A stretch of 64,000 bases of DNA, taken from a virus. Its lineage: Duplodnaviria; Caudoviricetes. Within the stretch, counting starts at the first letter, position 1, and every line of letters begins with the position of its first letter. This document shows, piece by piece, positions 7,543 through 46,082 of this stretch. The notes under the pieces are model-generated. The model was not told where the DNA came from. It worked only from the letters and a program-made list of their open reading frames with translations, and did not search any database. The stretch covers positions 32,001 through 96,000 of the IMG/VR virus record IMGVR_UViG_3300023048_000001; one strand, written 5' to 3'. The position numbers and the translations under genes are program-made.

Positions 7543-7543
7543 C

Positions 7544-12034: not shown

Positions 12035-15000
12035 TTATAGGTATTTCTTAATACTGAAGTTATCCCACATATAGACATCACCGGTTCCTATACCCGAGTT
12101 GGTTGAACCACTGGTTAGCGTAGTTGGTGTTAATACCATCGAGAACTGTGTTGCAGAAGATGGGAAGGTAACATAAGTGACAAATGTTCCAGTACCATTT
12201 AAGTTATTGGAAGTAGAATAATATGTATTTGTACCATCACCAATGTTTACATTCAAATACTGAACAGCAGCATTCGTTGCTAGATAATCAAATTGTATTT
12301 TGTAGGTAATGGCTTGAGTGTTTGAGATTGCTCCACTCAATTTTGCTGTTACTGTACCCAATGCCAATGATACTGTGGACACTAATCTACCAGCATTAAT
12401 ACTCAACACACAGTTAGTACCACTGAATGCCGATGGTACTGAACCTGTTGAGAATGTACCATCAGTAACCAATTCTGGACCTGCCGCAGTTAATGTAACT
12501 GATGGTGTTAGCGTTGGTGTCACTGATCGTGTTTGTGTTAATGATGGTGTGATTGATAATGTTGGCGTTACTGTTGGTGTAATCGTTCTGGTCACTGTAA
12601 TTGAAGGTGTTGCGGTTACACTCGGAGTCACTGATTTGGTTGGTGTTACCGATGGTGTGATTGAAATAGTTGGTGAAACTGTTAATGTAGGTGTAACAGT
12701 TGGTGATACCGTCTTGGTAACGCTTGGTGTTACGGTAATTGTACCCGTCACTGATGGGGTCGCTGTCAATGTTGGCGTTGTTGTCAGCGTTGGGCTCATT
12801 GTTGGTGAAAGTGTCAGCGTAGGCGTCACAGCCATTGAAGTGGTTGCAGTAACTGATGGCGTAACTGTTATTGTCTGTGTCACTGTTGGTGATGGTGTTG
12901 GCGTTGGGGTATCGGTCAACGTTGGAGTAACAGTCACACTTGGTGTCACGGTAATCGTTGGTGAAGCTGTCACGGTATTTGTCACTGTTGGCGTGAATGT
13001 CACGCTTGGTGTCATTGAAATAGTGGATGTCAATGTTGGCGTAACAGTTAATGTAGGACTCAATGTAACTGATGGGGTTAATGTGATTGTTGGTGTAATT
13101 GATGCTGTAACTGTTGGTGTTACCGTTACTGATGGTGTAGTAGTGGTGGATGGTGTTGTTGTTACCGATGGAGTCACCGAAATGGTTTGAGTCACTGATG
13201 GTGAAACTGTTGGGGTAGGTGTTGCTGTCATACCTGAAGTGCCAGTAACTGATGGTGTTACTGTATTTGTAGGTGTAAGTGTTGGTGACACGGTTGCAGT
13301 TACAGAAGGCGTCATTGATGCTGTAGTTGAAATTGTTGGTGTGACTGTTGGCGTAGCTGACAATGAGATGGTAGCCGTGACTGATGGTGTCACCGTCACT
13401 GAAGCTGTTGGTGTTGGTGATTCAGTTAATGTTGGTGTAGCAGTCATTGTTGGAGTCAATGTAACGGATGGAGTCACAGAAATTGACTGCGTAACTGTTG
13501 GACTTAAGGTTACCGATGGCGTTGCAGTCATTGATGGCGTCAACGTAACTGATGGCGTAACTGATACTGACTGAGTTTGTGTTGGTGTTGGGGTTACTGC
13601 TGGTGTATCAGTAACGGTAGGTGTCATAGTAACGCTTGGTGTAAGTGTTGGTGAAACTGTTTGTGTAACTGTTGGAGTCATTGATGGAGACACAGTAAGC
13701 GTGGCTGTAGTTGTTGGTGTAGGTGTAACAGCCGGAGTATCTGTCATCGTAGGCGTAACAGTAAATGATGGTGTTACCGTAGTGGATGCGGTTTGTGTTG
13801 GTGTAATTGTAGGTGACGGTGTAGCCGTCACTGAAGGACTTAATGAAACAGTAGCCGTGATAGTTGGTGTAATAGTTGCACTTACTGTCTGTGTAACAGT
13901 TGGAGTTACCGTAGGTGTTATTGTCGTAGTCGTTGTTGGTGTAGGGGTTGGACTATCTGACACTGTAGGTGTAATCGTAGCTGTAACGGATGGTGTTACA
14001 GACGCAGTTTCAGAAATAGTTGGGGTTACAGTCAATGTGGGTGTTGATGAAACTCCCGGAGTATTTGTCACTGTAACTGTAGGCGTCACAGACGCGCTCA
14101 CAGAAGCCGTCTGTGATGGTGTTAATGAGATTGTAGGCGTAACTGTAGAAGTCGCTGTAGGCGTTAGTGAGGCAGTCACAGATATGGTTGGCGTGACTGT
14201 TGCCGTAATAGAACTTGTAACTGATGGTGTTAGTGAGGGGCTGACTGTTGTAGACACGGTAGGAGTTGGAGTTACCGTAGCTGAAGCACTTAATGAAAGG
14301 CTTGGGCTGATGGTAACCGTAGCCGTTACAGTAGGGGTTGGTGATTTAGTTGTAGTTGGCGTATTTGATGGAGCCACCAGCGTACCACTTGGAGCCATCG
14401 TTGGGGTTACTGTCACAGATGGTGTAGCGGTGGTGGTTGGTGTTGGAGTTACAGGGACGTTATCACGAGTCACTTTATAGAATGCCAAATCTTCTATAAA
14501 GTATTGTTTTGTTCTAGCAGCAGGAATCTTATAGTTTGCATCATCAAATAATTTTATAGTTAATGTAAGATTGCTATCAGAAGGCATGTAAAGATAATAA
14601 GAAATTCTTCCACTATCACGGATAGGACAATAGATCATCAAATCTTGTTGTAGATCGGAAATAGAATCACCAAACAAGAAGGGGTTATTTGATGATAATG
14701 TTACGATGGCATATCGACATATACCTTGTTCATAGTCAAACGAGAAATGATAGTAGTTATTACCCGAAACCGGCATATTACTTGCTGTAAAGGTAGGGAA
14801 CTGAGTTTTGTTGGCTGAAGCAGAAATCAACTGAATCTGATTCTTACCATTCTGAAATCCAGTTTTAGTAGTGCCATAAGCTGGAACCCACTGATTAATG
14901 TTTTTGAACCAATTATCTATAGCCATCCAAGTCATTGTAGGAGTCATGGTAGGTGTGGCAGTAGCAGCAGGGGTCTTGGTAGGCTGTCTAGACGGTGTTA

Positions 15001-15196
15001 CCGTGGGTGTTGGTGTACGTGTTACTAGGGATGCAGCAGTCAGATAGGCATTGGTGGTAAGAACAGTGTATGTCTTCCCTTTGGATACTATTACGTATGA
15101 GATTAGAACACCATTTGTATAGTTGATTGATGTGACCGCACCATACATTACAATAGTACCACTTAGAAAATATACAAAATCGCCAATTTTAAACAT
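12035..15196 (-). CDS. Mucin-like virion fibre protein: N-terminal module, CBM-like domain, ~650-aa Thr/Ser/Pro stalk, C-terminal beta-sandwich
   Basis: Translation; late motif AATAAATA at 15220-15227. Confidence 0.75.
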   Translation of the reverse strand: MFKIGDFVYFLSGTIVMYGAVTSINYTNGVLISYVIVSKGKTYTVLTTNAYLTAASLVTRTPTPTVTPSRQPTKTPAATATPTMTPTMTWMAIDNWFKNINQWVPAYGTTKTGFQNGKNQIQLISASANKTQFPTFTASNMPVSGNNYYHFSFDYEQGICRYAIVTLSSNNPFLFGDSISDLQQDLMIYCPIRDSGRISYYLYMPSDSNLTLTIKLFDDANYKIPAARTKQYFIEDLAFYKVTRDNVPVTPTPTTTATPSVTVTPTMAPSGTLVAPSNTPTTTKSPTPTVTATVTISPSLSLSASATVTPTPTVSTTVSPSLTPSVTSSITATVTPTISVTASLTPTATSTVTPTISLTPSQTASVSASVTPTVTVTNTPGVSSTPTLTVTPTISETASVTPSVTATITPTVSDSPTPTPTTTTTITPTVTPTVTQTVSATITPTITATVSLSPSVTATPSPTITPTQTASTTVTPSFTVTPTMTDTPAVTPTPTTTATLTVSPSMTPTVTQTVSPTLTPSVTMTPTVTDTPAVTPTPTQTQSVSVTPSVTLTPSMTATPSVTLSPTVTQSISVTPSVTLTPTMTATPTLTESPTPTASVTVTPSVTATISLSATPTVTPTISTTASMTPSVTATVSPTLTPTNTVTPSVTGTSGMTATPTPTVSPSVTQTISVTPSVTTTPSTTTTPSVTVTPTVTASITPTITLTPSVTLSPTLTVTPTLTSTISMTPSVTFTPTVTNTVTASPTITVTPSVTVTPTLTDTPTPTPSPTVTQTITVTPSVTATTSMAVTPTLTLSPTMSPTLTTTPTLTATPSVTGTITVTPSVTKTVSPTVTPTLTVSPTISITPSVTPTKSVTPSVTATPSITVTRTITPTVTPTLSITPSLTQTRSVTPTLTPSVTLTAAGPELVTDGTFSTGSVPSAFSGTNCVLSINAGRLVSTVSLALGTVTAKLSGAISNTQAITYKIQFDYLATNAAVQYLNVNIGDGTNTYYSTSNNLNGTGTFVTYVTFPSSATQFSMVLTPTTLTSGSTNSGIGTGDVYMWDNFSIKKYL
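12490..14455 (-). repeat. Degenerate TP[ST][VIL]T coding repeat tract
   Basis: Protein-level low-complexity repeat. Confidence 0.9.
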
Positions 15197-15240
15197 GCCT
15201 ATCCTTGGATTATGGAAATTATTTATTTAAATGAGAAATA

Positions 15241-15266
15241 AAAAGGGAACCTTTCGGCTCCCTTTT
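15241..15266 (-). terminator. Intrinsic terminator
   Basis: aaaaggga-a-cc-tttc-gg-c-tccctttt hairpin. Confidence 0.7.
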
Positions 15267-15305
15267 AATAGGCATTTTCGGCAAATCTTTAATATGTGAT
15301 ATAAA

Positions 15306-16076: not shown

Positions 16077-16084
16077 ATATTTCC

Positions 16085-19000
16085 TTATGAGTAAGTATAG
16101 CCAATGGTGGTAGCATTTTCTCTTATTGTGACCGCATGTACTCTAACTGGTGGACCAACACTCAAGGTAGCATAGGTGAACTTTGCCGATGCAGGATAAC
16201 TAATAGTATTACCGCTACAATATTGTACTATTACTGAACTTCCAGTATTAGATATAAGATAAGTAAATGTATCAGTAGGTTGCGGTTTAACTAATAATAA
16301 ACCTGCCGGAGCCGATCCGGTTGCTAGACTGAGAGGTAAACTATTGGTTGCAACTGTTGCAGCACCCACTGTTGCAGCAACAGGATTATATGCTGATATG
16401 TATACATTGGTTGAACCGGCAACTCCAACCGAAACATATGAACTGGCGGTACTTGTTGATATACTTTGTGCTAAAACAATGCCGACTGGTACTGCACTTA
16501 GCACAGTTTGGGTAGATGTAGTAGCTAGAGTAAAAGTATCATCATTATTTATTTTATATACATTAATGTATGGAGCGACAGCTAACCCAAAAGCAACATA
16601 CTCTGCAAGACCGTCAACAGTTATAGTAGTATCAACGCAATACCAATTTCCTGTAAATGTGGTTAATATAGAAAATGACTCTGCTGATGAATTGAATTTG
16701 ATAGTTTTTCCACCAGCACCATTAGTATTGGCAAAAATATAATTACCACCCTTGGAAAATTTAAGTGCATTATATGTATATCCCATTGCTAATGTGCTCA
16801 AACGAGTAAATGTCCCATTGAAATTATTTTTGTAAACATATACGTTTGTTAACGCAGAAAGCGCAATGTACTTATTATCTGATGAGATATCTATCGCAGT
16901 AACAGCAGCAGCAATATCAGGAAATGGATTTGTCAATGGACTATAAGCACCATTATTTAATGTGAATGCTTGTGCGTTACCTACTGCGGAAGCATATCCA
17001 ACGAGCAATAAACTTGCATCAGAGCTTAAAACACAAACTTTTGCTGCATCACTAGCATAGCCTATTACTGGTATGTTAGTGCCATCATTAAACTTAGTTA
17101 ACTTCTGGACAGTGATGGGTGCTAAAGTAGAGTTTGCTGCTATAGCTACATAGGTATTAATGATATCATTATGTTGATCAACAACCGTATAATCAGTAGT
17201 TAATATTTTCTTTGCTGAAACAGTGAGCCCGTCTCGTAAAGCTAAACCGCCTCCCGATAATGGTGATGATATTTTAGCTAATCCACTAACTTTACTAGCA
17301 TAAGCATTACTAGTTAATGTACTATCAATATTGATAATATCACTAGCTCCCATTACATTTGAGCTTGTATATGATGTAGTAGTTGGTGGATTACCAGAAA
17401 GTACACTGTAATTATTTGATCCCGTAGAATTCCACTGTACGGTGTTATCTGAAGTTAGCGGTTCACTTACTACAGAACAAGCCCCTAGGCGGTTATAATT
17501 TTCTAATCCGCTACCATCAATAATATACATATCACTGACCTTCATAGGTAAGGTAACTTGTGATGATGTATTCACATCTCTCTTAAAGCATATACTAATA
17601 GGACCAGATAGAAATGATTTAAATTCACTAATATCAAAATTATTATATGTACCTACACCAGCATATATGGTCAAACTTTTTGAGCCTATATACAACAAGG
17701 CATTGGTAAGTCCTGTGTCGCTGGTAGAATTTATAATTAACTCAATATATACATTACTAAAGACACCATTAGAATATCCTACTGCATCGGCTGAAAGCTC
17801 TCTAATTCCATTAATGAAGCTACCACCAGTAGTAGATGAGAAATAGGTGCAACTTATAGAATTATCTTCTAAAGTTATAGAAAATCTAGATGGTCCATTA
17901 GCATAATTATAGTTATCGGATAGAGTGTTACCATTATAATTACCCGGAGCAATGACAGCAATGACATTGATTTGATTATCATATCTAACAATATTTGTGT
18001 TTGATGATAGTACTACGTAATTGTTATCAGAACTATAAGCAATTTGATTATAGTTATCTATTGGGTATGAATTAGGGTAGGATGTTATACTACCATTTGA
18101 TATTTTGTAAACTTTGGGTTGATAGCTACCAGTAAATAATACGGTGTATTTGTTTTTATTTGGATTATATAATATAGATTTAACTGGTGCAGTTAAAGCT
18201 TCAGGTAAAGCTACTGAAGGCATACCTGAAGCAATTGTGTATATTTGCATGTAAGGTGCAGAAGATGATCCTACTAACATGTATTTGTTGTCTGTGTTCT
18301 GGTTTGTATCAATACTAGTAACGTTAGTTAATCCAGATAGGGAGTATACTGGTTGATATGTTGGTATTGAAGTTGAAAAAAGAAAAGCAGATACTGATGT
18401 TTGGGTAGCCACATATATATAACCAGAATTTACATCTACTGAAACTGCTCTAGCACCTGCTGGCGGTAACGTGGCTGGATTAGCTGTTTTAGTCCAAGTA
18501 TCAGATCCTACTGTTTTAAGATAGAAGTTTACATAAGGTGTCGATCCGCCAACAATAATAAATGAATTATTATATGTGAACACACAATCAGTTACAGTTC
18601 CTGTTATACCATAACTGGTTATATTAGTATATGTATTTGCTCCAATATCTCTTTTATATATGTAAACATTGGAAGTTGCACCGGTTAATAGCATTAAAAA
18701 GTACATACCATCTGGTGAAAATCTAATCTTAGTCATAGTCAGTGTAGTTTGTACTTGAGAGAATATGCTCGTCCAATATGTATAACCATCTGCGCCCATT
18801 GTATTTCTGGTATAGAGCATAATTCTATTTGTATTAGATGAATCCCTAAAGGAAACTAATAAATGTGATCCATCAGAATTATAGGCGGCAGTGACATTTG
18901 TTAGGCCTGTAGGTAAGCTAGCTAGTGCAGATGACTCTACGGTCTGTGATCCACTATATGCATATTCACTTAAGCTGAAACCTATACCAACACGACCAAG

Positions 19001-19246
19001 GCCACTCGCAAATGTAGGTAAATTTGTATTATTAAGTGTAATACCAGTTTTGGATGCATAATAGCTACCATGAGTGGAACTAGCGGTTGTTACTGATAAG
19101 TCTAGACCATTATTAGAGTACCCATTTTTTGGATATGCATTAGTTAAATTGGCAGCACCTTCAGCGGTAAAAACACCCCATTTTGTAGATGGTATGGTTG
19201 CTGTTGTGTTATCAAATTTAAAATTATCAAAATATACGATGGACAT
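16085..19246 (-). CDS. Virion structural protein with two beta-propeller (WD40-like) regions
   Basis: Blade repeats (FSPDGMY, YKNNFNGTFTRL, PYINVYK); late motif GATAAATA 19266-19273. Confidence 0.65.
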   Translation of the reverse strand: MSIVYFDNFKFDNTTATIPSTKWGVFTAEGAANLTNAYPKNGYSNNGLDLSVTTASSTHGSYYASKTGITLNNTNLPTFASGLGRVGIGFSLSEYAYSGSQTVESSALASLPTGLTNVTAAYNSDGSHLLVSFRDSSNTNRIMLYTRNTMGADGYTYWTSIFSQVQTTLTMTKIRFSPDGMYFLMLLTGATSNVYIYKRDIGANTYTNITSYGITGTVTDCVFTYNNSFIIVGGSTPYVNFYLKTVGSDTWTKTANPATLPPAGARAVSVDVNSGYIYVATQTSVSAFLFSTSIPTYQPVYSLSGLTNVTSIDTNQNTDNKYMLVGSSSAPYMQIYTIASGMPSVALPEALTAPVKSILYNPNKNKYTVLFTGSYQPKVYKISNGSITSYPNSYPIDNYNQIAYSSDNNYVVLSSNTNIVRYDNQINVIAVIAPGNYNGNTLSDNYNYANGPSRFSITLEDNSISCTYFSSTTGGSFINGIRELSADAVGYSNGVFSNVYIELIINSTSDTGLTNALLYIGSKSLTIYAGVGTYNNFDISEFKSFLSGPISICFKRDVNTSSQVTLPMKVSDMYIIDGSGLENYNRLGACSVVSEPLTSDNTVQWNSTGSNNYSVLSGNPPTTTSYTSSNVMGASDIINIDSTLTSNAYASKVSGLAKISSPLSGGGLALRDGLTVSAKKILTTDYTVVDQHNDIINTYVAIAANSTLAPITVQKLTKFNDGTNIPVIGYASDAAKVCVLSSDASLLLVGYASAVGNAQAFTLNNGAYSPLTNPFPDIAAAVTAIDISSDNKYIALSALTNVYVYKNNFNGTFTRLSTLAMGYTYNALKFSKGGNYIFANTNGAGGKTIKFNSSAESFSILTTFTGNWYCVDTTITVDGLAEYVAFGLAVAPYINVYKINNDDTFTLATTSTQTVLSAVPVGIVLAQSISTSTASSYVSVGVAGSTNVYISAYNPVAATVGAATVATNSLPLSLATGSAPAGLLLVKPQPTDTFTYLISNTGSSVIVQYCSGNTISYPASAKFTYATLSVGPPVRVHAVTIRENATTIGYTYS

Positions 19247-19271
19247 TATAATACTCGTTGTTGTTTATTTA

Positions 19272-22200
19272 TCATGTTTTTGGAATCAAAACTAGTCGCT
19301 TTATAGACATAATATCAATTTCTGGATTAGGCGCTGGTGCCAATACCATTCTTCTTAATGAATTAATTTGAATGATAGGTGCAGCCGGGGATAGTGAAAC
19401 TGAAGGTGTTGGTGTAGGTGACACAGTTCTAGTCATTGTAACTGTAGGCGTAGGCGAAGCCGTTATGCTACTAGTAAGTGTAGGTGTCGGTGTAAATGTT
19501 CTAGTTACAGACGGTGTTGGAGATGCTGATATAGAAACTGTTGCTGTAGCTGATGGTGTTGGTGACACTGCCGCAGACCTAGTTACAGAAGGTGTAGCCG
19601 TCAATGTTGGAGTCATCGTTAATGATGCTGTCACTGACGGAGTAACAGATGCAGTTATTGATGGTGTGACTGTTGCGGTCAATGAAGCCGTAACTGATGG
19701 GGTTACTGAAATAGTAGCAGTCATCGTAGGTGTAGCAGTAGGTGTAGGTGTAGGTGTTGAACTCACCACCGGTGGAGTAATCAAGGTATAAATCTTGATA
19801 TTGTCTACAGCACTGGTATTTGTAGATGTATCACCACTGAAACCAAAGTACATATTAGAATCAGCTACAGGATAGTAGTAAACCTTGCAATCATTATCTA
19901 CATATACGCTGATATAACGAATATCATTAAAGTAATCAAAACGAATTTCACCGTTATACCACTGACCAGCATTCAATGTACCAAACTCAGATGTAGCAGC
20001 AGGGTCATTATGATCAGTCCACGATGTAGCTGATGAGATACCAGAGCTTTCACCAGCAATGTTAGTCAACTTCAAATAGCTACCACTACCTGTTGCATCA
20101 TTACCAAAGAAGAAATCAAATGATGAGTTTGTACCCAAGTTGAAGTCAAAGTTGATTCTGTTGAAATACTTACCGACTGGAATACTATTGTAGGAGTAAT
20201 CATCACTACCATACACAAATGCAGGCTGTGGATTACCGATGCTATTATCTACAATACCACCAGCATTGGTGAATGCACTCAAACTAGTACCGTCATAGTA
20301 CTGAATCATTGTACCCTTATCGACATAGTAAGCATTCTGGATCAATCTGTTGTAGTTTGAACCTGCACCATTATTGTAGAACCAGCTAATTTCTGCCGCA
20401 CTGAATGACTTGAAGCAAATGAAAGCCGAATCAATACCACCAGCCCAACCGCTTGTGTGGAATCCATCGTTACCGATGATGAAGCTCTGAGTTACACCGT
20501 AGTAAGTTGAACTGTATGTCAATTGCTGGGTAGCACCATTATTAACGGTAATCTTTAATAGATGGAATGATGAATCGTAGGTGCCAACAACTGAGAACCA
20601 TGCATCTTTGATGCCGATTACATTAGAATAGACTGTAGATACATTGTCACCATTGTCAGAGATGGTTAGGAACACCTTATCCTGTGCTTTATCATAACCA
20701 AGTTTAATCTGCTTCTTGGTATCATCCCAACGAGACATGATTGACATTTCATTATACGTAATCTGTGCCAACAATGCAGAATCGATCTTAACGAAAGCGC
20801 CCAACGTAAAGTCAGTAGTTCCGTAGTTGACAACGTTTTCTGAGAAGGTGCTTTCTAATCTGCTATCAAAATTGGTGACAGGATTAAAGAATGCAGCATT
20901 ACCTTGCAAACCAGTTCCAGTAGTTACATTATATGGAGTCATCAAGACACCATCTTTAGCATCCATACGGGATGCTGTTGCAGGCTCTTCCATATCCCAC
21001 CAGTTATGCAACGAGTTTAGAATAGACTGTGCATTCTGGTCGTAGATGGTTGAAGGTGTGACAGAAATTGTAGGTGTTGGTGATGGAGTTCTTGTTAAAG
21101 TAGGCGTAATCGTTCTTGTAGCTGTCAACGTAGGCGTAATGGTACGGGTAGCGGTCAACGTTGGGGTAATTGTTCTGGTCAATGTCGGAGTCATTGTCAA
21201 TGATGCAGTAATTGATGGAGTCACTGAAATCGTTGGAGATACCGTTAATGATGCAGTTATTGACGGAGTTACTGAAATTGTAGGCGTAATTGATGGTGTC
21301 ACCGAAATTGTTGCGGTAACCGATGGTGTCAATGAAATTGTAGGTGTAATAGAATGTGATGCTGTTACTGATGGTGTGACTGTAATTGTAGGTGTTACTG
21401 TACGCGTAGCAGTAATCGTATGCGTTGGTGTCATCGTTACAGATGGTGTCATCGAAATAGTTGCAGTAACCGATGGTGTCAATGAGTGTGTTGGTGTTAC
21501 TGATGGCGTAATCGAAATTGTAGGTGTAATTGATGGAGTTACAGAAATTGTAGGAGTAATTGAACGCGTGGTTGTTATTGATGGTGTTAGTGAAATGGTT
21601 GGAGACACCGTATGTGTCGGTGTTCTTGATGGTGTAGTTGTAAGCGTTGGCGTAGGTGTTGGCGTCACAATGAAGCCAGCGTTGTAATGTGAGTTAATGT
21701 ATGTCGTGGTTAATGCATAATTATAGATAGCAAGTTCATCTATGCTACCAATGAATCTCTTATTTGGTAGATATGCAGATGAGAAGAGTTCTAGGTCAGT
21801 ATCACCAACATCCAAGATACCATTTCCCGGAATAGATGTAGTAGCAACAACATTCTTATTGATATACATTGTCAAACTTCTACCACTTCTTACTATCTGA
21901 TAGAGTCTTGAAACATCATCATTGATAGCAAAATTAGTGTTAAGAATAGTAGGCTGACCATTTACATATACTGTAAACACACCAAAGCCACTAGAATCTA
22001 GACCAAAGCTGTAGTTATAAAATCCTAACACTGGATCAGAAAACTTACCAAAAGCTGTTGGTTGGTCGTCAAGCTGTGATGCGCTGGCCTTCAGTGCAAA
22101 CTCAAAGGTAAAATCACCACCTGAGAAAGACAGATCGGAAACGTTATTAGAGATAGTGACTAAACCATTACCAGCATTTGCTGCTGACTTATCACCATAA

Positions 22201-23909
22201 TTTTGAAGCAAGCTTGACTGATTTAGAGTCAATAGTCCGTTAGTTACGCCATTATGGCTTCCCTTTGCATCAAGTAGAGACAGACCATTAGGTTCATCAA
22301 ATCGATAATAAGCAACAGGGACAGCCTGAAGAATCAATTGTCTGTAAGAGTCAACTGACGGAGTTAATGAAGGCGTTGGTGTTGGAGTTAAAGCCGTAGC
22401 ACTGCTATTCAACCAAAAAATATAATGGTTCTGAATCTGGAAGTCAGTCATCGCATAGCGATACATGCTGAAGTCATCCATAATTCCTGAATAGTTTTGT
22501 GTAGCATCATTGACGATACCACCAACATACAAGAAGTTATTTGTTGTTAGGTTGTTACCTAGAACTGGAACGGAAGCTAATTGTAAACCATTTGAGTAAA
22601 TCTTTAATGTGTTAGACTGGCGAATGATAGTAATCATTCTGTCAACATTGTCACCTAAGCTTAAACCTGAATTTAGAGTGTAACTACCTTGATCAGTTAC
22701 TAATTTGAACACTAATTGATTGGAAAAAGTCACCAATTCGAAAACATAAGTTCCACTGCTTAGTGGTAACTGGAATAGCGTAGCATTATGTGGTTGAGAA
22801 GCACCATTGATTGACAACTCAAAAGAGAAGTCACCTAGAATATTTTTATATCTGTTGTCGCTGTTAGCCACAACGTAAGATGCTTGAGTGCTACCAAATA
22901 GTGCAGAGAAGCCAGAACCATCAACAATAGGTGGTTGACCGATAGTAACGTTATGGTAAGTACCATTGATGTTATTACCACTATAATCTAGAACAGCGGT
23001 TCCAGTCATTTCATCAAATTTGTAATAAACGAGAGGCTTATCTGCGATCACGTTTCTTGCATACCCTGAAAGCGGAATTCTTACAGGTGTTCTAGATGGT
23101 GTTAACGATGGTGTAATCGTTGGTGTTAACGATGGTGATAATGTTGGGGTTGGTGTTAGTGAGATATTGGTGTTGATTTCTTTCAACAACGTATCTGACA
23201 AACGATAATCAAAGTTCTTGATTGGTGAGTGGTCATAATTTGAGTCTGTATAGAACTCAAGTGTTAAGGTGACATGGGATGCATCTGGTATGAAAACAAC
23301 AGATTCGAATCTACCACTATCACCAAATAGTCCTAGGACAATGGTGTCACCATGATTAATGTAAGAGTTTGATACTTCGAATAGGTCACCACGATTGGCT
23401 TTAAGGCTCAATCTGTAATAACGCATGGTTCCTTGTTCATAGTCAAAATTAAAATTATAATAGGTCTGCTGATCAACCGTAAAATTCTTCGTGAAAGACA
23501 CTGGAAGATTATCTGTTGATGCAGTGCTATTGAATTCGATTGAACGCCCTTGATCTACAGAGTCAATAGTACCATTGACTGTTGACCAGCCAGTAGTATT
23601 AGATGAAAGAAAAAGGTTTGGCTGAACTTCAAAGCTTGGTGTCATCGTCATAGACGGAGTAACTGAAGGCTCAGGAGTAGAGGTTACACTAACCGTAGGA
23701 GATAGCGTGGGTGTAGGCGTTGGAGTAATTAATGAAAATGCATTAGGGTATGCATTCTGCGCTGCAACTGTTTGTGTTGTACCATTGGATAACTTAACCA
23801 AATACGAAATCGTGCCGCTGCTATCAATTACTTGAGTGCAAACACCATATTCAACGGTATTAGAAGTTGACACAAAGTATATGATATCGTTGACATTAAA
23901 ATAATTCAT
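19272..23909 (-). CDS. Mucin-like virion fibre protein with three LamG/ConA-like domains
   Basis: PLVYYKFDE..G..D.SGN, GIMDDFSMY, PVAYYRFDE, GSIDELAIY, WWDMEE; TP tracts; late motif CATAAATA 23932-23939. Confidence 0.8.
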   Translation of the reverse strand: MNYFNVNDIIYFVSTSNTVEYGVCTQVIDSSGTISYLVKLSNGTTQTVAAQNAYPNAFSLITPTPTPTLSPTVSVTSTPEPSVTPSMTMTPSFEVQPNLFLSSNTTGWSTVNGTIDSVDQGRSIEFNSTASTDNLPVSFTKNFTVDQQTYYNFNFDYEQGTMRYYRLSLKANRGDLFEVSNSYINHGDTIVLGLFGDSGRFESVVFIPDASHVTLTLEFYTDSNYDHSPIKNFDYRLSDTLLKEINTNISLTPTPTLSPSLTPTITPSLTPSRTPVRIPLSGYARNVIADKPLVYYKFDEMTGTAVLDYSGNNINGTYHNVTIGQPPIVDGSGFSALFGSTQASYVVANSDNRYKNILGDFSFELSINGASQPHNATLFQLPLSSGTYVFELVTFSNQLVFKLVTDQGSYTLNSGLSLGDNVDRMITIIRQSNTLKIYSNGLQLASVPVLGNNLTTNNFLYVGGIVNDATQNYSGIMDDFSMYRYAMTDFQIQNHYIFWLNSSATALTPTPTPSLTPSVDSYRQLILQAVPVAYYRFDEPNGLSLLDAKGSHNGVTNGLLTLNQSSLLQNYGDKSAANAGNGLVTISNNVSDLSFSGGDFTFEFALKASASQLDDQPTAFGKFSDPVLGFYNYSFGLDSSGFGVFTVYVNGQPTILNTNFAINDDVSRLYQIVRSGRSLTMYINKNVVATTSIPGNGILDVGDTDLELFSSAYLPNKRFIGSIDELAIYNYALTTTYINSHYNAGFIVTPTPTPTLTTTPSRTPTHTVSPTISLTPSITTTRSITPTISVTPSITPTISITPSVTPTHSLTPSVTATISMTPSVTMTPTHTITATRTVTPTITVTPSVTASHSITPTISLTPSVTATISVTPSITPTISVTPSITASLTVSPTISVTPSITASLTMTPTLTRTITPTLTATRTITPTLTATRTITPTLTRTPSPTPTISVTPSTIYDQNAQSILNSLHNWWDMEEPATASRMDAKDGVLMTPYNVTTGTGLQGNAAFFNPVTNFDSRLESTFSENVVNYGTTDFTLGAFVKIDSALLAQITYNEMSIMSRWDDTKKQIKLGYDKAQDKVFLTISDNGDNVSTVYSNVIGIKDAWFSVVGTYDSSFHLLKITVNNGATQQLTYSSTYYGVTQSFIIGNDGFHTSGWAGGIDSAFICFKSFSAAEISWFYNNGAGSNYNRLIQNAYYVDKGTMIQYYDGTSLSAFTNAGGIVDNSIGNPQPAFVYGSDDYSYNSIPVGKYFNRINFDFNLGTNSSFDFFFGNDATGSGSYLKLTNIAGESSGISSATSWTDHNDPAATSEFGTLNAGQWYNGEIRFDYFNDIRYISVYVDNDCKVYYYPVADSNMYFGFSGDTSTNTSAVDNIKIYTLITPPVVSSTPTPTPTATPTMTATISVTPSVTASLTATVTPSITASVTPSVTASLTMTPTLTATPSVTRSAAVSPTPSATATVSISASPTPSVTRTFTPTPTLTSSITASPTPTVTMTRTVSPTPTPSVSLSPAAPIIQINSLRRMVLAPAPNPEIDIMSIKRLVLIPKT

Positions 23910-23996
23910 TGTTCTTCATTTTCTTTAAAGCTATTTATGTTTTTATATTACGAATTGGAGTCCGAAATAATAAATAATTTACCAGAGAGCGTTCCC

Positions 23997-35270: not shown

Positions 35271-35950
35271 AATGGTTTGGATAACTTCTTTACGGCTGCT
35301 GATAGGGTATAACGCGGAAAGCAATCAATATTGCTGGTTGGACTCGCATTGATAACTTCGATATTGGCAGCTTTCAATTGAGTTAAAGTTGATCTGAAGA
35401 TAGATGGTAAATGACTTAGTGATCGGGTGGTCTTCTTTTCATTATAGAAATATCCAGCCGATGCATCGAGACCAAAGAAAGCAATTCGTTTAGGTCGTAA
35501 ATGATAAGCCAAATTCAAAGCACCAAATCCTGAGTTGCCAGTATTGATACAACTTGGGTCTTCATTTAATCCCCAAGTGAGCATATCGTATGGTTTAACA
35601 TCAGCACAACTATGAAAAGGAATTCTATGCAGGTAATTGATGGTTGGGTCAGCTTCAATCTTATGATCACCACTTCTTGCATCCATCATCCCGTAATCTT
35701 CTGGAACAGCAGAAAATAGATCACCAGTGAAACCCTTTGGAATCTGGCCTTTGGTTAAACCCCAAGGATCAAGAGTGAACCATGCATCAGCATAAGGAAG
35801 GTACTTACCTGCATCATTTACGGCAATGATGTAACCCTTATTTCTCAAGTTCTCAAAATTAAAATTCATTAAACTTGGACCCGAACAGACTATGATTACT
35901 GTGTCAGGACGTAATGTTGTGTTGACTCTTGACCATCTGATACCGCTCAT
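35267..35950 (-). CDS. Maf/DUF115 (GT42-like fold) putative glycosyltransferase
   Basis: IVCSGPSL, IAVND, NSGFGALNLA, IAFFGLD, VINASP. Confidence 0.65.
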   Translation of the reverse strand: MSGIRWSRVNTTLRPDTVIIVCSGPSLMNFNFENLRNKGYIIAVNDAGKYLPYADAWFTLDPWGLTKGQIPKGFTGDLFSAVPEDYGMMDARSGDHKIEADPTINYLHRIPFHSCADVKPYDMLTWGLNEDPSCINTGNSGFGALNLAYHLRPKRIAFFGLDASAGYFYNEKKTTRSLSHLPSIFRSTLTQLKAANIEVINASPTSNIDCFPRYTLSAAVKKLSKPL

Positions 35951-36897
35951 TCATGATTCCTTAGTAATTCTTGATAGAAAATACTATTCTCTACCTTCAC
36001 CGCGTTAGACAAATCACTCCAATTCATTTGTCTTTCATATAGTGAAACAATTAAATTCTTTCTTTCTTGATCAGAATTTAGATTTCTGGATGTAACACCA
36101 GCACCCAAACTGATTACGTTAGAATGATATAGCATCGTCTCGATCAATACTGTGGAGTTGATCCCAACTACCATATCTGCATAAGGTATATAGTGGTGAA
36201 CATCACCCTTTACCTCTATAAATTTGTCATAATTTCCTACGTTTGCTGGGACAAGTGGGTGTCGTTTGAAAAGAATATCTCTATCATCATACTGATAGAT
36301 GTCACTAACATATTGCATTAACTCATCCATCGTTTTAAATGGTGAATATTTGACAATCTGAGTATCAGTCTCTACCTGTAGTGGGACAAAGATGAATGGC
36401 TTATCATGAAGCCTATTCTTTTTATTATCTTCTTGTAATTTATTAATTAGTGAATCAGTATAATCTACATCTTTTGATTGTAGGGGTGATGATATGTTTG
36501 ACAACCTGCAATTGACACCAACAAGATCGAAATAGCATGTCTTTCCATAGTGATTGAAGAATCCTAGCTCACCATAGATAATTTTTATACCTCTGGCCTT
36601 CAACGTCTTGATTGTCAATTGGTCGGAGGGTAGGTTTCCATTCCATATAAAAGAAAAGTCAGGTTTAAATCGAATAGCATTGAGGTAGGCATCAGCATTA
36701 CTTTCATTAAAAGTATCCAATTGATAGACTTTATTGTAGTCATCTGTAACAGCGCCAGCCTTGGTGTGACAAATGATATAAGTTTTATGTCCCATTCTTT
36801 CTAATGTATTAGCTAAGTCTTTAAATAGACTAAGAATAGACTTGTAATTCTGAGCAGTTTCATGATTATTTAAAGCTACAGTAAAAAGGAAATTCAT
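35947..36897 (-). CDS. KpsS/capsule-biosynthesis-like (GT107-type) glycosyltransferase
   Basis: IWNG, ELGFF, D..GVN, FVPLQVETDTQI, FKRHP, INSTVLIE. Confidence 0.75.
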   Translation of the reverse strand: MNFLFTVALNNHETAQNYKSILSLFKDLANTLERMGHKTYIICHTKAGAVTDDYNKVYQLDTFNESNADAYLNAIRFKPDFSFIWNGNLPSDQLTIKTLKARGIKIIYGELGFFNHYGKTCYFDLVGVNCRLSNISSPLQSKDVDYTDSLINKLQEDNKKNRLHDKPFIFVPLQVETDTQIVKYSPFKTMDELMQYVSDIYQYDDRDILFKRHPLVPANVGNYDKFIEVKGDVHHYIPYADMVVGINSTVLIETMLYHSNVISLGAGVTSRNLNSDQERKNLIVSLYERQMNWSDLSNAVKVENSIFYQELLRNHE

Positions 36898-37361
36898 TAT
36901 CTGTACCTTATAAATTTGGCAGGTGATCCCGCTACAATGGCTCTAGCCTCTACAGATTTGTTAACGAAACTGTTGGCTCCAACGATACAATCATTATTGA
37001 GGACAATGCCATGATTGATGGTACATTGACCACTTACCCAAACGTTGTCCCCAATCACCAATGTACTTCTAAGCATCTTCTCTTCAATCAAAGGAACATC
37101 TGTAATCTGGTGAGAAGAGGCCAGTAAGATAGTGCTTGGGCCGATCAACGACCCTTTTCCAATGGACATCTTGCCAGTACATTGAATAAAATTATGATAT
37201 CCAATAACACTCTTTTCACCAATCTCAAGTTCACCTTCCATTTCTATAACAGTATAGGCTCTGATCTGGACCTTATCACGTAGGATGATAGTCCCGCTTC
37301 CGATAAATTTTACCGTTGGATCGATTCTAACGTTATTTCCTTTGATGATATCTAATGTCAT
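36897..37361 (-). CDS. Hexapeptide-repeat sugar O-acetyltransferase
   Basis: Left-handed beta-helix repeats; IGDNVWV, IVGANSFV, IVAGSPAKFIR. Confidence 0.9.
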   Translation of the reverse strand: MTLDIIKGNNVRIDPTVKFIGSGTIILRDKVQIRAYTVIEMEGELEIGEKSVIGYHNFIQCTGKMSIGKGSLIGPSTILLASSHQITDVPLIEEKMLRSTLVIGDNVWVSGQCTINHGIVLNNDCIVGANSFVNKSVEARAIVAGSPAKFIRYR

Positions 37362-38092
37362 TATAACTCTTCTCTAATAAGTTTTATTTCTGGATGAATT
37401 TTTGAATATTTATCCACTAGATTTAGGTAGTGTGGATAGCCAAGATTCTTATATTCTTCAATATCTTTAAATGGTTGCCTATTAGGGATTATTTTATTAA
37501 AGCTGCTGTATCGGGTCTGACTCAATAAATGAATAATAGGAGAACTTAAGGCGAAGGCTACTTTTTTATTCTTTCTATAAAGGTTTTCAAAAATAAAATC
37601 ATCACCACAATAAAAATCAAGAACAGAAGGAATATCCACCCATTCTGACTTTCTAAAAGTAAAATCCCAACCTTGTCTGGTCTTTTCATCAAGAACAACG
37701 TATGAGAGTTCTTTTTTAGCTACAGTCCAATCTTTATGATTAGTTGGGTGGATTACACAGGAAACATCTGATTCAATATCAAAAATTTGTCTTGTATCAC
37801 TTAAAAAGTTAGAAGGGATGCGAATATCATTGTTCAAGAAAGAACAAACATCACCTTGCGCTATTTTTATGAACTCGTTCCATATAGCGTTCAATGGCCT
37901 GTTGAAGCCATTCTGTATAACTACGTTACCTTCGGCCATCATCTGGTCTAGGAATGCCTCTGTACCCGGTTCTACGGAGTTCTGATCCACTATGATCAAC
38001 TCATAGTGCTTGTAATTTTGTTTCTTTAAATCTTTTACCAGATTCTTTGTATGTTCTAAACAATTGAAGTTGACGATTAAGCAAGATATCAT
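37361..38092 (-). CDS. GT2 family glycosyltransferase
   Basis: ISCLIVNFN, ELIIVDQNS, FLNNDI, CGDD. Confidence 0.85.
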   Translation of the reverse strand: MISCLIVNFNCLEHTKNLVKDLKKQNYKHYELIIVDQNSVEPGTEAFLDQMMAEGNVVIQNGFNRPLNAIWNEFIKIAQGDVCSFLNNDIRIPSNFLSDTRQIFDIESDVSCVIHPTNHKDWTVAKKELSYVVLDEKTRQGWDFTFRKSEWVDIPSVLDFYCGDDFIFENLYRKNKKVAFALSSPIIHLLSQTRYSSFNKIIPNRQPFKDIEEYKNLGYPHYLNLVDKYSKIHPEIKLIREEL

Positions 38093-38736
38093 AAGTAGTT
38101 CTCTAGTTTGTCTTTTCTAAAGCAATCAAGAGCCGAAGATGGTGAACAGTTGACCACATCAATTTTCATATTCTTCAGACCCGGTGCCATGCTGTTGATA
38201 GATGGGATGAACATATCATCATAAACATAATTGCCCATAGGCAGACCATGACCTTCATGCCAGTGAGATTGTCCACGGGATAGTTTCATATCGTAGCCAA
38301 GAAGGATGATTCTTTTCACCTTAATATTGGCTAAAAGGTTTAACATGTGTGCCCCACTGTTATTTCCTCTTACGTTATCAATATTCATGTCAATCCCATA
38401 GTCTCCTGTTCTGCGAAGAACAGTGGCATTTCCAGAGGCTAATATATTTCCTTTAATATAACCATCTGCACTATGCCTTGCAGTGAAACGAAGTTGACAG
38501 GAATGATTCATAACGTTATCATAGTGGGTTCCGATCCAGCTTTCATCGCACCAATACAGTGCAGTTGCATCAGGAAACTCTCTGTACGCTGTATTCAGAC
38601 AGATAATGTTTTTGCCTTTTAATGAAGATTTATCGACCATTTTGAAACTAGGACCACCTCCTATAACAAAAACGTCTCTACCGCTAACTTTATCGTAAAG
38701 TTGTTGTATTTTATCTCGCATTTTGCTACCATTCAT
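38089..38736 (-). CDS. Maf/DUF115-like putative glycosyltransferase (paralog of 35267..35950)
   Basis: VIGGGPSF, ICLN, NNSGAHMLNL, IILLGYD, VVNCSP. Confidence 0.65.
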   Translation of the reverse strand: MNGSKMRDKIQQLYDKVSGRDVFVIGGGPSFKMVDKSSLKGKNIICLNTAYREFPDATALYWCDESWIGTHYDNVMNHSCQLRFTARHSADGYIKGNILASGNATVLRRTGDYGIDMNIDNVRGNNSGAHMLNLLANIKVKRIILLGYDMKLSRGQSHWHEGHGLPMGNYVYDDMFIPSINSMAPGLKNMKIDVVNCSPSSALDCFRKDKLENYL

Positions 38737-41871: not shown

Positions 41872-41879
41872 GGATAAGA

Positions 41880-43007: not shown

Positions 43008-43060
43008 TAGACAAATGTGAAATTAAGAACTATAATCCCTTGGCCTAAAACCAAGGGATT
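43008..43060 (+). promoter_or_regulatory. sigma70-type promoter overlapping a hairpin (probable nrdAB terminator)
   Basis: TAGACA-N17-TATAAT; aatcccttgg/ccaagggatt stem 43034-43060 followed by ctttt. Confidence 0.65.
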
Positions 43061-43065
43061 CTTTT

Positions 43066-43701
43066 ATGTATATTATCGAACCACAAGCCATGCAATTGCT
43101 AATTGGATTGTATAACTCACCTCAGCGTCATTATCATGACCTGAATCATATCAATTTTAGTTTACATAAACTTGGTGAATGTTCGACTAAATTTAGCCTA
43201 GAAAGGGCTGAATTGACTGTATTGAAGTATGCAATCTGGTTTCATGATGCAATCTATTCTCCATATAAAATGGCTGGAACATCTAATGAACTAGAGTCAG
43301 CAGATTTGTTTAGCTCATGCCTTAAAGATAACATAATTCATGATAAGTTCTTTTATAAGGATTTTGAGGAACGTGTTGTTGAAGCCATCCTAGAAACTGA
43401 GTACCATGCTGGAAACCCTACCACTGATCTATACCGAACAACAGATATCATGATGGACATCGACATGGCAGGCTTTGCCAAGCCGTATGCTCTTGCATAT
43501 GGTGATTCTGATCTTATTTTTAAGGAATATGCATTCTTGGGATATTCCAAGACTGATATGATGAAGGCAAGAATTGATTTCTTACAGAAGCTCCTTTTCA
43601 AGGAGTACATCTACAGAACTGAGTATTTCCGTGAAACCCATGAGGCCAAGGCTCGCCAGAACATTACAGACATCATCAAGGCCACACAGGAGACCTCTTA
43701 A
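43066..43701 (+). CDS. HD-superfamily metal-dependent phosphohydrolase
   Basis: RHYHDLNH, AIWFHDAIY, NELESA, MDID. Confidence 0.85.
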   Translation: MYIIEPQAMQLLIGLYNSPQRHYHDLNHINFSLHKLGECSTKFSLERAELTVLKYAIWFHDAIYSPYKMAGTSNELESADLFSSCLKDNIIHDKFFYKDFEERVVEAILETEYHAGNPTTDLYRTTDIMMDIDMAGFAKPYALAYGDSDLIFKEYAFLGYSKTDMMKARIDFLQKLLFKEYIYRTEYFRETHEAKARQNITDIIKATQETS

Positions 43702-43770
43702 AGCTGGGACCGTTCAATTAAACTGTAGAGTCTTCACATTTCATAAATATATGAAAATCGGAACTCTCAA

Positions 43771-44532
43771 ATGTATCTTGTCGAATTGGCTAATCCCAAG
43801 CAATTAAAAACCCATCTGGAATACCATGCAACGCTTAACCCTAAGCTATGGAGTACATTTGCAGATGACAAGAACTACCCAATGCTCAAGCCTGAAGTAC
43901 AAGAGGCATTAGAAAAGATTTCTAATGCCTTTTTAGCTTTCTTGAAAGTTGAAGCAGACAAAGTTGCCGACATTATTTTCACTGGTTCTAATGCAAATTA
44001 TAATTGGTCAAAATTATCAGATATTGACCTGCACATTATTTTAAATTATGATGCTATCTGTAAGGATTGTCAGGAGAACAGTTCAGGATTTGATTTAGAC
44101 GATTGCTACAAAGCAAAGAAGACCGTATGGAATGAATATCATGATATTACTATCAAGGATTACATTGTAGAAGTCTACGTTGAACCAAAGACTGAAGAAC
44201 GTTCTGGTAACGCAGGCGTCTGGTCACTAGTCAAGAAAGACTGGATCAAGGTTCCTCAAAAAGAAGAAGACTTAGTTTATGATGAAACTCAGATCAAAGC
44301 CAAGGCTGCTGATCTAATGCATCAGATTGATATGCTAAGTAAAGAATCAGATGCCACAGCCATTAAAGCTATGCAAGATAAGATCAAGAAAATGAGACAG
44401 GCCGCTATCTCTTCTGGTGGTGAGTTTTCTCTAGAGAATCTTGTATTTAAAGCAATCAGAAACAATGGTTACATGGACAAACTTTACGATTTAGGCAACA
44501 AAGCAGAAGATGATGAATTGTCTTTAAAATGA
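43771..44532 (+). CDS. Pol-beta superfamily nucleotidyltransferase, late-expressed
   Basis: FTGSNANYNW...SDIDLHII, VEVYVE; CATAAATA at 43742-43749. Confidence 0.8.
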   Translation: MYLVELANPKQLKTHLEYHATLNPKLWSTFADDKNYPMLKPEVQEALEKISNAFLAFLKVEADKVADIIFTGSNANYNWSKLSDIDLHIILNYDAICKDCQENSSGFDLDDCYKAKKTVWNEYHDITIKDYIVEVYVEPKTEERSGNAGVWSLVKKDWIKVPQKEEDLVYDETQIKAKAADLMHQIDMLSKESDATAIKAMQDKIKKMRQAAISSGGEFSLENLVFKAIRNNGYMDKLYDLGNKAEDDELSLK

Positions 44533-44606
44533 GAATTTTCTGTCCATTTTCTGTTATTAAGAATTTTATAAAATAAATAGACAAATACCCCTTAAGGAAG
44601 GTTTTA

Positions 44607-45773
44607 ATGAATACTAATTTACACGGTTATGCGCCATACTCAGTAAATGATACGCTATGGATGTTAAATCTATCTACTCACGCTATCACTAGCGGTGTTG
44701 TTAAGGTTATCCATGATACTGCTGGTGTTTACTCATATGATGTTTTAGTAGATGGTACAAACAACACAGTCACTGTTGCTCATACTGATGCATACGCATT
44801 GCAGAGCTATGCAGAATTGAAGTTACAGTTGATTGTTACTCCTACTCCGTCACCATCACCTACTGGTACTCCACCAGTTACACAGACTCCACATGCTTCT
44901 CCAACCCCATCAGTAACCGTAAGCAACACTGTACCATTCGGTCCTGACGTTCTAGATATCAACGGCGGTACATGGACATTGAGCCATGCAACAATCGCTA
45001 ATGGTAAGATCGTTTCAACCTCAACCGATGGCGTTGCACCTGTATCTGTTTCAACTGTTGTAACTGTTCCAGTCAATCGTCAGGCTGTCTTTACTCTAGG
45101 TTACAATGAAGGTACTGTTTCCAGCGCTAAGCTAACCCTAACCGGTAACAACTCTGGCGTTGTTCAGCAGCAGTCACTTCTAGGTAGCGGTAAGGTAGAC
45201 GTTGTTCTATTCACTGGTACCAACACCTCATTGACCCTAAAGGTCGAATTGTTTGAAGATTCAACCTTTAAGAAGTATGCACTAGCTGGTTACACATACC
45301 TATTGACTGATGGTGTTATCAAGGTTGTTGCTCCAACCACAACTGTTACTCCCAGCCCAACAGCAACATTGACACCAACACCGTCAACATCTGCTTCTCG
45401 CTCGGTAACTCCTACGCCTTCACCAACCAAGTCAACAACACCTAGCCCAACAGTTTCAGCTACAATCTCAGTTACACCATCTGTGACTGCCTCTGCCGGT
45501 GTTCCTGTAACTCCTACACCGTCTCCAACGCATTCTACTGGCACTACAGTGACACCTAGCCCAACAGCTACAGTATCAGGTACACCAGCAGTAACACACA
45601 CCGTAACACCAACACCTACAACATCAGCTACACACTCAGCAGGCGTTTCACCTTCACCAACACCTACCATTTCATCCAGCGCTGGTTTGGTATCTCCAAC
45701 ACCAACACCTACCGCTACGGTATCAGGTACGCCAGTTGTGACGCCAACACCATCGGTCACAGCAACCCACTAA
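44607..45773 (+). CDS. Short mucin-stalk virion protein (paralog of 12035 and 19272 N-halves)
   Basis: Shared N-terminal module, CBM-like domain and TP tail; AATAAATA 44572-44579; RBS AAGGAAGG. Confidence 0.75.
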   Translation: MNTNLHGYAPYSVNDTLWMLNLSTHAITSGVVKVIHDTAGVYSYDVLVDGTNNTVTVAHTDAYALQSYAELKLQLIVTPTPSPSPTGTPPVTQTPHASPTPSVTVSNTVPFGPDVLDINGGTWTLSHATIANGKIVSTSTDGVAPVSVSTVVTVPVNRQAVFTLGYNEGTVSSAKLTLTGNNSGVVQQQSLLGSGKVDVVLFTGTNTSLTLKVELFEDSTFKKYALAGYTYLLTDGVIKVVAPTTTVTPSPTATLTPTPSTSASRSVTPTPSPTKSTTPSPTVSATISVTPSVTASAGVPVTPTPSPTHSTGTTVTPSPTATVSGTPAVTHTVTPTPTTSATHSAGVSPSPTPTISSSAGLVSPTPTPTATVSGTPVVTPTPSVTATH

Positions 45774-45809
45774 GTATAATCACAGGGGAACGATTATAAA
45801 GGAAATTAC

Positions 45810-46082
45810 ATGAGCGTATATACAGTAACATACAAGTTTAACCCAAATGATTTAGTTTGGGTTCTCGATTCAAATTCTGTAAAGAAGGGTACTTGTGTGC
45901 AATCTGTAGTAAAAATCGCCCAAAAGAACAAGACTGACATCCAGACGGTAATTGAGTATTTGATTCTCTTGGATTGTAATTCTGGAACTATTTGGGTTGA
46001 TGATGCCAATGCCTATGAGTCATTGCAAGATGCGATAGATGCGTTGTCACTACAGATGCAAACGACATCGTGTCCATCTTGA
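45810..46082 (+). CDS. Stand-alone version of the fibre N-terminal module
   Basis: FNPNDLVWVL...G.C.Q...Y.I......NAY pattern; RBS AAGGA. Confidence 0.65.
   Translation: MSVYTVTYKFNPNDLVWVLDSNSVKKGTCVQSVVKIAQKNKTDIQTVIEYLILLDCNSGTIWVDDANAYESLQDAIDALSLQMQTTSCPS

Follow-up and report, generated by a model that had tools for sequence, protein, structure and literature searches.

The 64,000-nucleotide window analysed here (bases 32001-96000 of a 174.6-kb IMG/VR virus record) contains four genes, labelled A to D, whose products share a protein module of approximately 60-85 amino acids (aa). The module forms the N-terminus of A, B and C and makes up nearly all of D. The genes and their parts are listed below in window coordinates, with folds as predicted from models and CBM standing for carbohydrate-binding module.

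12035-15196, minus strand: gene A, 1053 aa; module, Pro-Thr linker, predicted CBM-fold domain, Pro-Thr-Ser stalk of ~590 aa and 125-aa end domain
15017-15196, minus strand: module of A (aa 1-60), of the short A/B subtype, without the C-terminal helix
14447-14944, minus strand: second domain of A (aa ~85-250), predicted CBM fold
19272-23909, minus strand: gene B, 1545 aa; module, linker, predicted CBM-fold domain, three Laminin_G_3 domains with Pro-Thr between, duplicated C-terminal motif
23727-23909, minus strand: module of B (aa 1-61), modelled as a Tudor-like barrel
23160-23657, minus strand: second domain of B (aa 85-250), modelled as a CBM-type beta-sandwich
44607-45773, plus strand: gene C, 388 aa; module with helix (aa 1-76), linker, predicted CBM-fold domain (aa ~105-240), Pro-Thr tail
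45810-46082, plus strand: gene D, 90 aa; stand-alone module (aa 2-86), with three Cys that are invariant in its clade

The sequence elements of the module ([FY]xxxDx[VIL][YW], Gx[VC], Yx[VI] and [ND]AY) are all in register in the four proteins. In BLASTP searches against the 193 open reading frames (ORFs) of the window, the modules of A and B matched each other at 39% identity over 59 aa (E 5e-9), followed by B-D (36%, E 2e-4), B-C (33%, E 3e-4) and C-D (30%, E 6e-4). A hidden Markov model (HMM) of the four modules found no fifth copy among the 1005 ORFs of the 174.6-kb record. When the HMM was built from 15 external stand-alone homologues only, D, B, C and A were the top four of these 1005 ORFs, with E values of 2e-33, 2e-6, 4e-4 and 0.085, respectively. 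Protein A is joined to the family mainly via B and P0014 (P-numbered proteins are relatives obtained in the module-profile search described below). Since an independent HMM of external homologues places them first to fourth, chance similarity was rejected and the four modules are, on this sequence ranking, homologous.

After a TPTPT-type linker, A, B and C have in common a second domain of approximately 150 aa (31-34% identity and E about 3e-13 for A-B; E about 1e-6 for A-C and B-C), in which the landmarks FDYEQG/GYNEG, DSG[RK], LTL and [LF][FY]xD are aligned. The parts that follow differ among the three proteins. The Pro-Thr-Ser stalk of A leads to an end domain that displayed no similarity to the second domain (hhalign probability 0.25%) and no Pfam family, B carries the Laminin_G_3 domains (Pfam 5e-27), and C has no end domain after its Pro-Thr tail. 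At least nine of the large late proteins that this phage encodes have Pro-Thr stalks. An earlier note on this DNA had described a shared N-terminal module, a TP linker with a homologous second domain in the first three proteins, stalks and tips that differ, and a modular fibre-like family complemented by a stand-alone module gene. These descriptions are borne out: the aligned motifs, pairwise BLASTP and the external HMM reveal significant similarity among the four N-termini, and residues 2-86 of the 90 residues of D are module.

At the C-terminus of B (19272-19380, minus strand), a motif of ~15 aa occurs twice (IQINSLRRMVLAP / IDIMSIKRLVLIP). The same duplication is present in the orthologue P0008, though the surrounding Pro-Thr region is just 50% identical. 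This duplicated motif may be a second interaction site.

Structural models provided insights into the nature of the module. The AlphaFold2 model of D, obtained with 20 aligned homologues, displayed four long strands and a C-terminal helix at a mean predicted local distance difference test score (pLDDT) of 85.6. Among solved structures, its best match was the chromo-barrel of MRG15 (Z 8.7 over 77 residues); Tudor domains (Z about 7, root-mean-square deviation (rmsd) about 2 A) and PWWP domains were among the next matches, and no solved phage protein was among the structural matches. Because these Z values barely exceed the level that the tool gives for common matches, D was assigned just to the level of an SH3-type barrel. 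For B, residues 1-250 were modelled from 12 sequences (mean pLDDT 78), and the module matched the Tudor domains of ERCC6L2 and PHF19 (Z 8.8, rmsd 1.4-2.0 A, 56 residues); the match to 6hq9 has Z 8.8 and rmsd 1.4 A over 56 residues. The conserved aromatic residues of the module resemble core positions. Collectively, the models predict a Tudor/chromo-barrel-like barrel of the SH3 type. The predicted fold is like that of the royal-family barrels (the chromo-barrels of MRG15, MSL3 and MOF, Tudor and PWWP), and tandem arrangements occur in both groups; however, identity to these is 7-16%, there is no Pfam match, and the royal family belongs to eukaryotic chromatin whereas the module belongs to a phage surface context. 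At E<=0.01, neither D nor the N-terminus of A, B or C matched a Pfam family, and PHROGs gave no specific match to A, C, D or the module, the matches to phrog_15511 being to Pro-Thr low-complexity stretches.

The second domain of B (residues 94-248) was modelled as a beta-sandwich with pLDDT about 90. Its fold matches, in the Z range of 9.6-11.4, include CBM16, CBM4, CBM22, CBM61, the C-terminal domain of CBA120 TSP4, and tail-fibre domains of Kp7 and Pa193; those to CBM folds reached Z 10-11.4 with rmsd about 3 A over 120-135 residues. Foldseek gave E values of about 2e-5 to 1e-4, and the ESM-Atlas neighbours, which we used as a lead only, were GalBD_like and CBM_4_9 clusters (0.92-0.94). Sequence searches gave a different picture: the three second-domain segments matched nothing in Pfam at E<=1, CBM profiles included, and a profile of the domain found nothing below E 0.09 among PDB sequences. 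The domain is thus predicted to be a CBM-type jelly-roll beta-sandwich, and the label "CBM-like" given to it in the earlier note stands for the modelled fold but not for the sequence, which matches no CBM family. It shares the jelly-roll fold with CBM4/9, 16, 22 and 61 and is set apart from them by the lack of a Pfam CBM match. Cellulosome subunits, too, have a docking module joined through a Pro-Thr linker to a CBM, although the module described here is unrelated to dockerin.

To place the module in a wider context, a profile of the four copies was searched against 1.84 billion protein representatives (E<=1e-3), which yielded 32 relatives. The majority of these are stand-alone modules of 79-132 aa. 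In seven others (P0007, P0008, P0014, P0016-18 and P0036), the module is N-terminal and a Pro-Thr linker connects it to the same second domain, while P0034 and P0037 have an N-terminal module with other cargo. Modules in tandem were found alone in P0030 and P0035 and with a C-terminal domain of ~130 aa in P0015 and P0027. Two matches, P0009 and P0033, look like spurious hits on repetitive immunoglobulin-type proteins and were not used. Two complete records reached via D, G001 (350 kb) and G002 (340 kb), encode three and five copies of the module, respectively, with one D-type stand-alone gene each; their other copies form the N-terminus of Pro-Thr proteins that end in PKD-like and DUF285-type repeats. 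The module starts within residues 1-10 of A, B and C and likewise occupies the N-terminus of every longer homologue seen, be it in G001, G002, the Xanthomonas phage XacN1 or the metagenomic representatives. A scan of a single metagenome added one module locus. No match to D was obtained with tblastn against 50,697 GenBank phage records, and an IMG/VR search for loci related to P0023, P0015 and P0025 found nothing. In G001 (L022, G001:C1:184000-203000, 4646-11410), a fibre of 1005 aa with a C-type module follows directly after the genes for the portal (phrog_213, 2e-89) and the head maturation protease (phrog_207, 3e-44). No fibre is found at the matching place in the genome of the window.

Comparison of orthologues revealed a gradient of conservation along the fibres. 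The modules of B and P0008 are 93% identical and the other segments 50-82%; between C and P0007, the module is 78% identical and the remainder 59-69%. Judged by these identities, the module is the slowest-evolving part between orthologues. D is 73% identical to its orthologue P0006. Three cysteines (C29, C56 and the C-terminal C88, in the contexts GTCxQ, LL[DE]C and 2-5 residues from the end) are kept in nine of the nine D-type proteins compared, namely D, P0006, P0010-13, P0019, L003:10001-10264 and L004:9995-10270. They are mostly lacking in the modules borne by fibres, and may bind a metal or form a disulfide lock.

Homologues in cultured phages were reached only by three routes: the fold match of D in BFVD, a search of the XacN1 record with the profile, and a tblastn search that started from ORF179 of that phage. 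The best BFVD match was an 87-residue protein (template modelling score 0.84-0.86, rmsd 1.6 A), which is probably XacN1 ORF179. The profile search found two adjacent copies of the module in XacN1. One is ORF179, a stand-alone module of 87 aa; its stop overlaps by 1 nt the start of ORF180, whose 1259-aa product consists of a module, a TPTPT linker and propeller-like domains. The pair lies between the genes for DNA ligase and topoisomerase II. With ORF179 as the query, tblastn matched the phages Xoo-sp13, CM1 and RAS14, and the E values of the cultured-phage homologues ranged from 1e-8 to 1e-15. In Xoo-sp13, an open frame of 1857 aa (L019, MN047793.1 96008-101581) begins with two modules in tandem, at aa 2-84 and 91-168. 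This frame is open from 96008, and the start annotated for Xoosp13_179 (96323) falls inside the second module, which leaves the first one unannotated. RAS14 has adjacent stand-alone modules of 85 and 81 aa (WAX21781/WAX21780) and, in its genome, no other copy and no fibre.

A maximum-likelihood tree of 46 module instances suggested how these copies relate to each other. ORF179, the first module of Xoo-sp13 and the 85-aa protein of RAS14 form one cluster (support 96/95), while the N-terminus of ORF180, the second module of Xoo-sp13 and the 81-aa protein of RAS14 form another (98/96). The copies of the window fall into three groups: an A/B type (98/91), a C type (100/100) and the D-type stand-alone proteins. 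Identity between these subtypes is about 30-40%, and each of them has been conserved on its own. In the window, in G001 and G002 and on a fourth contig, a C-type fibre gene is found within about 1-2 kb of a D-type gene, and the pairs adjoin genes for ribonucleotide reductase (RNR) and/or topoisomerase II; this synteny supports the pairing of D with C.

The genomic setting of the four genes is consistent with a large myophage. At the left end of the record lie genes for the tail sheath, a sheath stabiliser, tube proteins and a tail protein of 1881 aa, and its RNR genes are 64-67% identical at the DNA level to those of Rak2-, CBB- and XbC2-type jumbo myophages. The completeness rating of the record is about 50%, and protein B is also encoded on a contig of 346 kb. 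We read the source as a giant soil phage, a ~350-kb myophage related to XacN1. No module was found by profile search in XbC2 (Mimasvirus), which gave the best RNR match. A and B sit within a block of giant fibre-like genes, adjoined by a block of glycosyltransferase-like genes (33984-38736), and C and D sit among nucleotide-metabolism genes.

Expression signals link these genes to the structural ones. The heptamer ATAAATA, which is the core of the T4-type late promoter (TATAAATA), has 46 occurrences on the two strands of the record. More than half of them (27/46) lie on the coding strand within 60 nt upstream of a predicted start, where the share of the sequence that such regions make up predicts about two. 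Their upstream positions are mostly -25 to -36, with a range of 25-40 nt over the 27 genes. Among the genes marked in this way are those for the sheath, the tube and the 1881-aa tail protein, and every one of the six large genes in the 12-34 kb block; the heptamer is probably a late promoter core. It also precedes several small genes at 43771-52285. By this signal, A, B and C appear to be expressed together with the structural genes, in a late-type manner. The signals around the four genes are as follows.

15220-15226, minus strand: ATAAATA, 30 nt upstream of the start of A
23932-23938, minus strand: ATAAATA, 29 nt upstream of the start of B
44573-44579, plus strand: ATAAATA, 34 nt upstream of the start of C
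46096-46133, plus strand: hairpin with a 17-bp stem, closing the putative C-D unit
46155-46183, plus strand: predicted sigma-70 promoter, 12/12 consensus (TTGACA-17-TATAAT), serving the next gene

No ATAAATA motif was found upstream of D, which starts 36 nt downstream of C with an AAGGA ribosome-binding site of its own. Because D follows C so closely, has no motif of its own and is followed by the hairpin, C and D look like one late bicistronic unit. The gene behind the sigma-70 promoter (46199-46558) encodes a protein of 119 aa that is helix-turn-helix (HTH)/HNH-like, and on these signals 46096-46183 is a sharp boundary between a predicted late unit and an early one. An N-terminal signal sequence was found in none of the four proteins. 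With no signal peptide and a barrel that begins at residue 2-10, the proteins are expected to fold in the cytoplasm.

Based on these findings, we tentatively propose, at somewhat below even probability, that the module serves to anchor or assemble proteins on the virion and that D is the hetero-partner in a plug made of two barrels. The N-terminal position of the module, the conservation gradient, the late-type expression and the lectin-like cargo on flexible stalks lead us to favour a docking or assembly role close to the particle; the docking role suggested for it in the earlier note is a reasonable hypothesis. The module would be the assembly or anchoring end of monomeric adhesin fibres built like beads on a string, in which it would be followed by the Pro-Thr linker, the CBM-fold domain, a Pro-Thr stalk (probably glycosylated) and variable lectin-like ends. 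D, presumably made from the same late transcript as C, would pair with a fibre-borne module to give a docking unit reminiscent of a tandem Tudor, and this two-barrel unit would be what holds the fibre on the particle. A, B and C would then be paralogous cargoes on diverged versions of the plug. Attachment to the virion, the heterodimer of D with a fibre and the glycosylation of the stalks are what we infer from the combined observations. A more elaborate version, in which a clade of jumbo phages uses a dedicated plug-and-socket barrel heterodimer to hang interchangeable O-glycosylated, mucin-like lectin fibres on the particle as a modular phage "glycocalyx", with the cysteines of D locking the joint after release from the cell, is rather doubtful.

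The idea that two modules pair rather than compete comes from the related phages, where the lineages are split (XacN1), fused in tandem, or both stand-alone (RAS14). The tandem fusions behind this argument are those of Xoo-sp13, P0015, P0027, P0030 and P0035. That two lineages keep their order side by side through splitting, fusion or loss of the fibre is, as far as sequence comparison goes, a classic signature of cooperating parts. The cultured proteins are true homologues of the module with the same plan of module and Pro-Thr linker, and in the jumbo phages of Xanthomonas and Stenotrophomonas they occupy the same locus, beside topoisomerase II genes. They differ from the proteins of the window in being annotated as hypothetical or predicted ORFs and in having no CBM-fold domain (propeller-like domains take its place in ORF180), and there is one fibre per genome in these phages versus at least three in the phage of the window.

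Several points weigh against this proposal. Support is weak (68/85) for the deep split of the tree that groups D with the ORF179 lineage and C with the ORF180 lineage, and the argument from fusion and fission is drawn mainly from a sister clade. The single frame of Xoo-sp13 could be a sequencing artefact; the four metagenomic tandem proteins are independent of it, however. Neither the text nor the supplement of the XacN1 paper names ORF179 or ORF180 as a virion protein, the list of virion proteins being given there as a figure, and our literature search found no virion proteome of Xoo-sp13 or RAS14. Gene neighbourhoods are mixed, C and D lying among nucleotide-metabolism genes, and since metabolic, tail and portal/protease settings all occur, the plug could sit either on the head or on the tail. 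Finally, with a single D for at least three fibres, D would have to pair promiscuously or else with C alone.

An alternative, which is the one put forward in the earlier note, is that all four proteins compete for one site on the virion, with D as a cargo-less cap or filler that makes the mixed surface tunable; such a surface would resemble Hoc/Soc decoration. It has in its favour that the module and late-type expression are common to all four, that the stand-alone form is the commonest in the family, and that RAS14 holds modules without a fibre, as would a pure small decoration protein. We consider it unlikely. The subtypes are old and divergent (about 30-40% identity) and each is separately conserved, suggesting distinct partners and leading us to expect distinct rather than identical sites. 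The tandem fusions and the translationally coupled ORF179/180 speak of cooperation instead of competition, and the three invariant cysteines of the D type, mostly absent from fibre modules, suggest that D is not simply a copy without cargo. A single binding site with D as a cap is therefore not supported as stated, and the claim of competition runs counter to the paired modules of related phages (split in XacN1, fused in Xoo-sp13 and fibre-less in RAS14).

Lower still in probability is the possibility that the module is no anchor at all but a domain for ligand binding or oligomerisation, which would bind, for example, the proline-rich Pro-Thr stalks of other fibres, glycans or nucleic acid. 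SH3, Tudor and chromo barrels are generic binders of peptides or nucleic acids, the models match these very types, and Pro-Thr stalks are plentiful, being present in at least nine large late proteins. Under this reading the fibres would be held by other parts, such as the conserved duplicated C-terminal motif that B shares with P0008, a suggestion to which we give equally little credence. Protein C, however, consists of the module, the CBM-fold domain and the Pro-Thr tail only, hence no anchor would be left in it. The slow evolution of the module is typical of the end proximal to the particle, and a free soluble copy of a distal ligand-binding domain would be without obvious use.

The least probable reading is that these are late proteins outside the virion, either soluble or cell-associated glycan-binding proteins or intracellular factors with D as a small regulator: although C, D and XacN1 ORF179/180 lie among genes of replication and nucleotide metabolism and no PHROG structural family matches A-D (low-complexity match aside), it is opposed by the late-type motif common to A, B, C and the genes for the sheath and the tube, by the location of A and B in a giant fibre-like block of which one member shares a 310-aa N-terminus with a tail-module gene, by CBM, LamG and PKD-type domains on long stalks, which are typical of particle-surface adhesins, and by the lack of a secretion signal in any of them.

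The two-barrel plug that we favour can be compared with known anchors. Phage receptor-binding proteins are well known to combine one common N-terminal anchor with distal parts that vary, and in some cases the adaptor is a separate protein; examples are the N-terminal domain of T7 gp17, the separate adaptor of the K1-5/SP6 type, CBA120 TSP1-4 and the depolymerases of phiK64-1/RaK2. The system of the window is similar in that several fibre genes have a conserved N-terminus and variable distal parts, in that a small anchor protein is separable, and in that the anchor evolves more slowly than the distal parts. Known anchors of this kind are found on trimeric fibres or spikes and have other folds, whereas here a Tudor-like barrel of ~65 aa is predicted on apparently monomeric chains of Pro-Thr-linked domains. 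No sequence or fold match of the module to solved phage anchors turned up. By analogy, a build with neither coiled coil nor beta-helix would resemble decoration of the Hoc/pb10 type more than trimeric tail fibres. T4 Hoc has Ig-like domains and binds through its C-terminal domain, and T5 pb10 has an unrelated N-terminal domain. Like the proteins described here, both are monomeric, modular and probably dispensable surface proteins that combine a particle-binding domain with outward adhesive domains, and the suggested role, weak adhesion to glycans, is also alike. Hoc and pb10 differ in that they have no Pro-Thr stalks, CBM/LamG cargo, several paralogues or a stand-alone or tandem anchor.

Other shared N-termini were also observed. 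The first ~310 aa of a 1320-aa protein (25043-29005, minus strand) are 32% identical (E 2e-44) to those of a 1112-aa protein encoded in a block of tail genes (G000:C1:7784-11122, plus strand; L020), and both proteins begin with M.I.FRQGII. In G000, the proteins encoded at 11122-12177 and 1835-7480 share aa ~31-110 (36%, E 2e-5). Because of these further shared N-termini, several anchor families for Pro-Thr proteins seem to be in use. In addition, a 1053-aa protein (16085-19246, minus strand) and the C-terminal third of the 1320-aa protein (25043-29005) have in common WD40/beta-propeller-like segments (32-33%, E about 1e-7), with weak Pfam matches to WD40, PD40 and FG-GAP.

The module family itself is new, with no Pfam or PHROG entry and hypothetical status in XacN1, Xoo-sp13 and RAS14, and so are the predicted Tudor-like fold of the module and the pattern of two modules that are either free or fused. 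In jumbo phages related to XacN1, the module identifies a group of surface fibres with a testable logic of assembly, that is, a small partner and one plug per fibre, and the cultured XacN1, Xoo-sp13 and RAS14 make the prediction of pairing directly testable. The Pro-Thr "mucin-like" proteins of the phage would have at least two or three different shared N-terminal anchors. If our proposal is true, the module could be used to recognise fibre or decoration genes in metagenomic jumbo phages, and as a handle for protein display on such particles.

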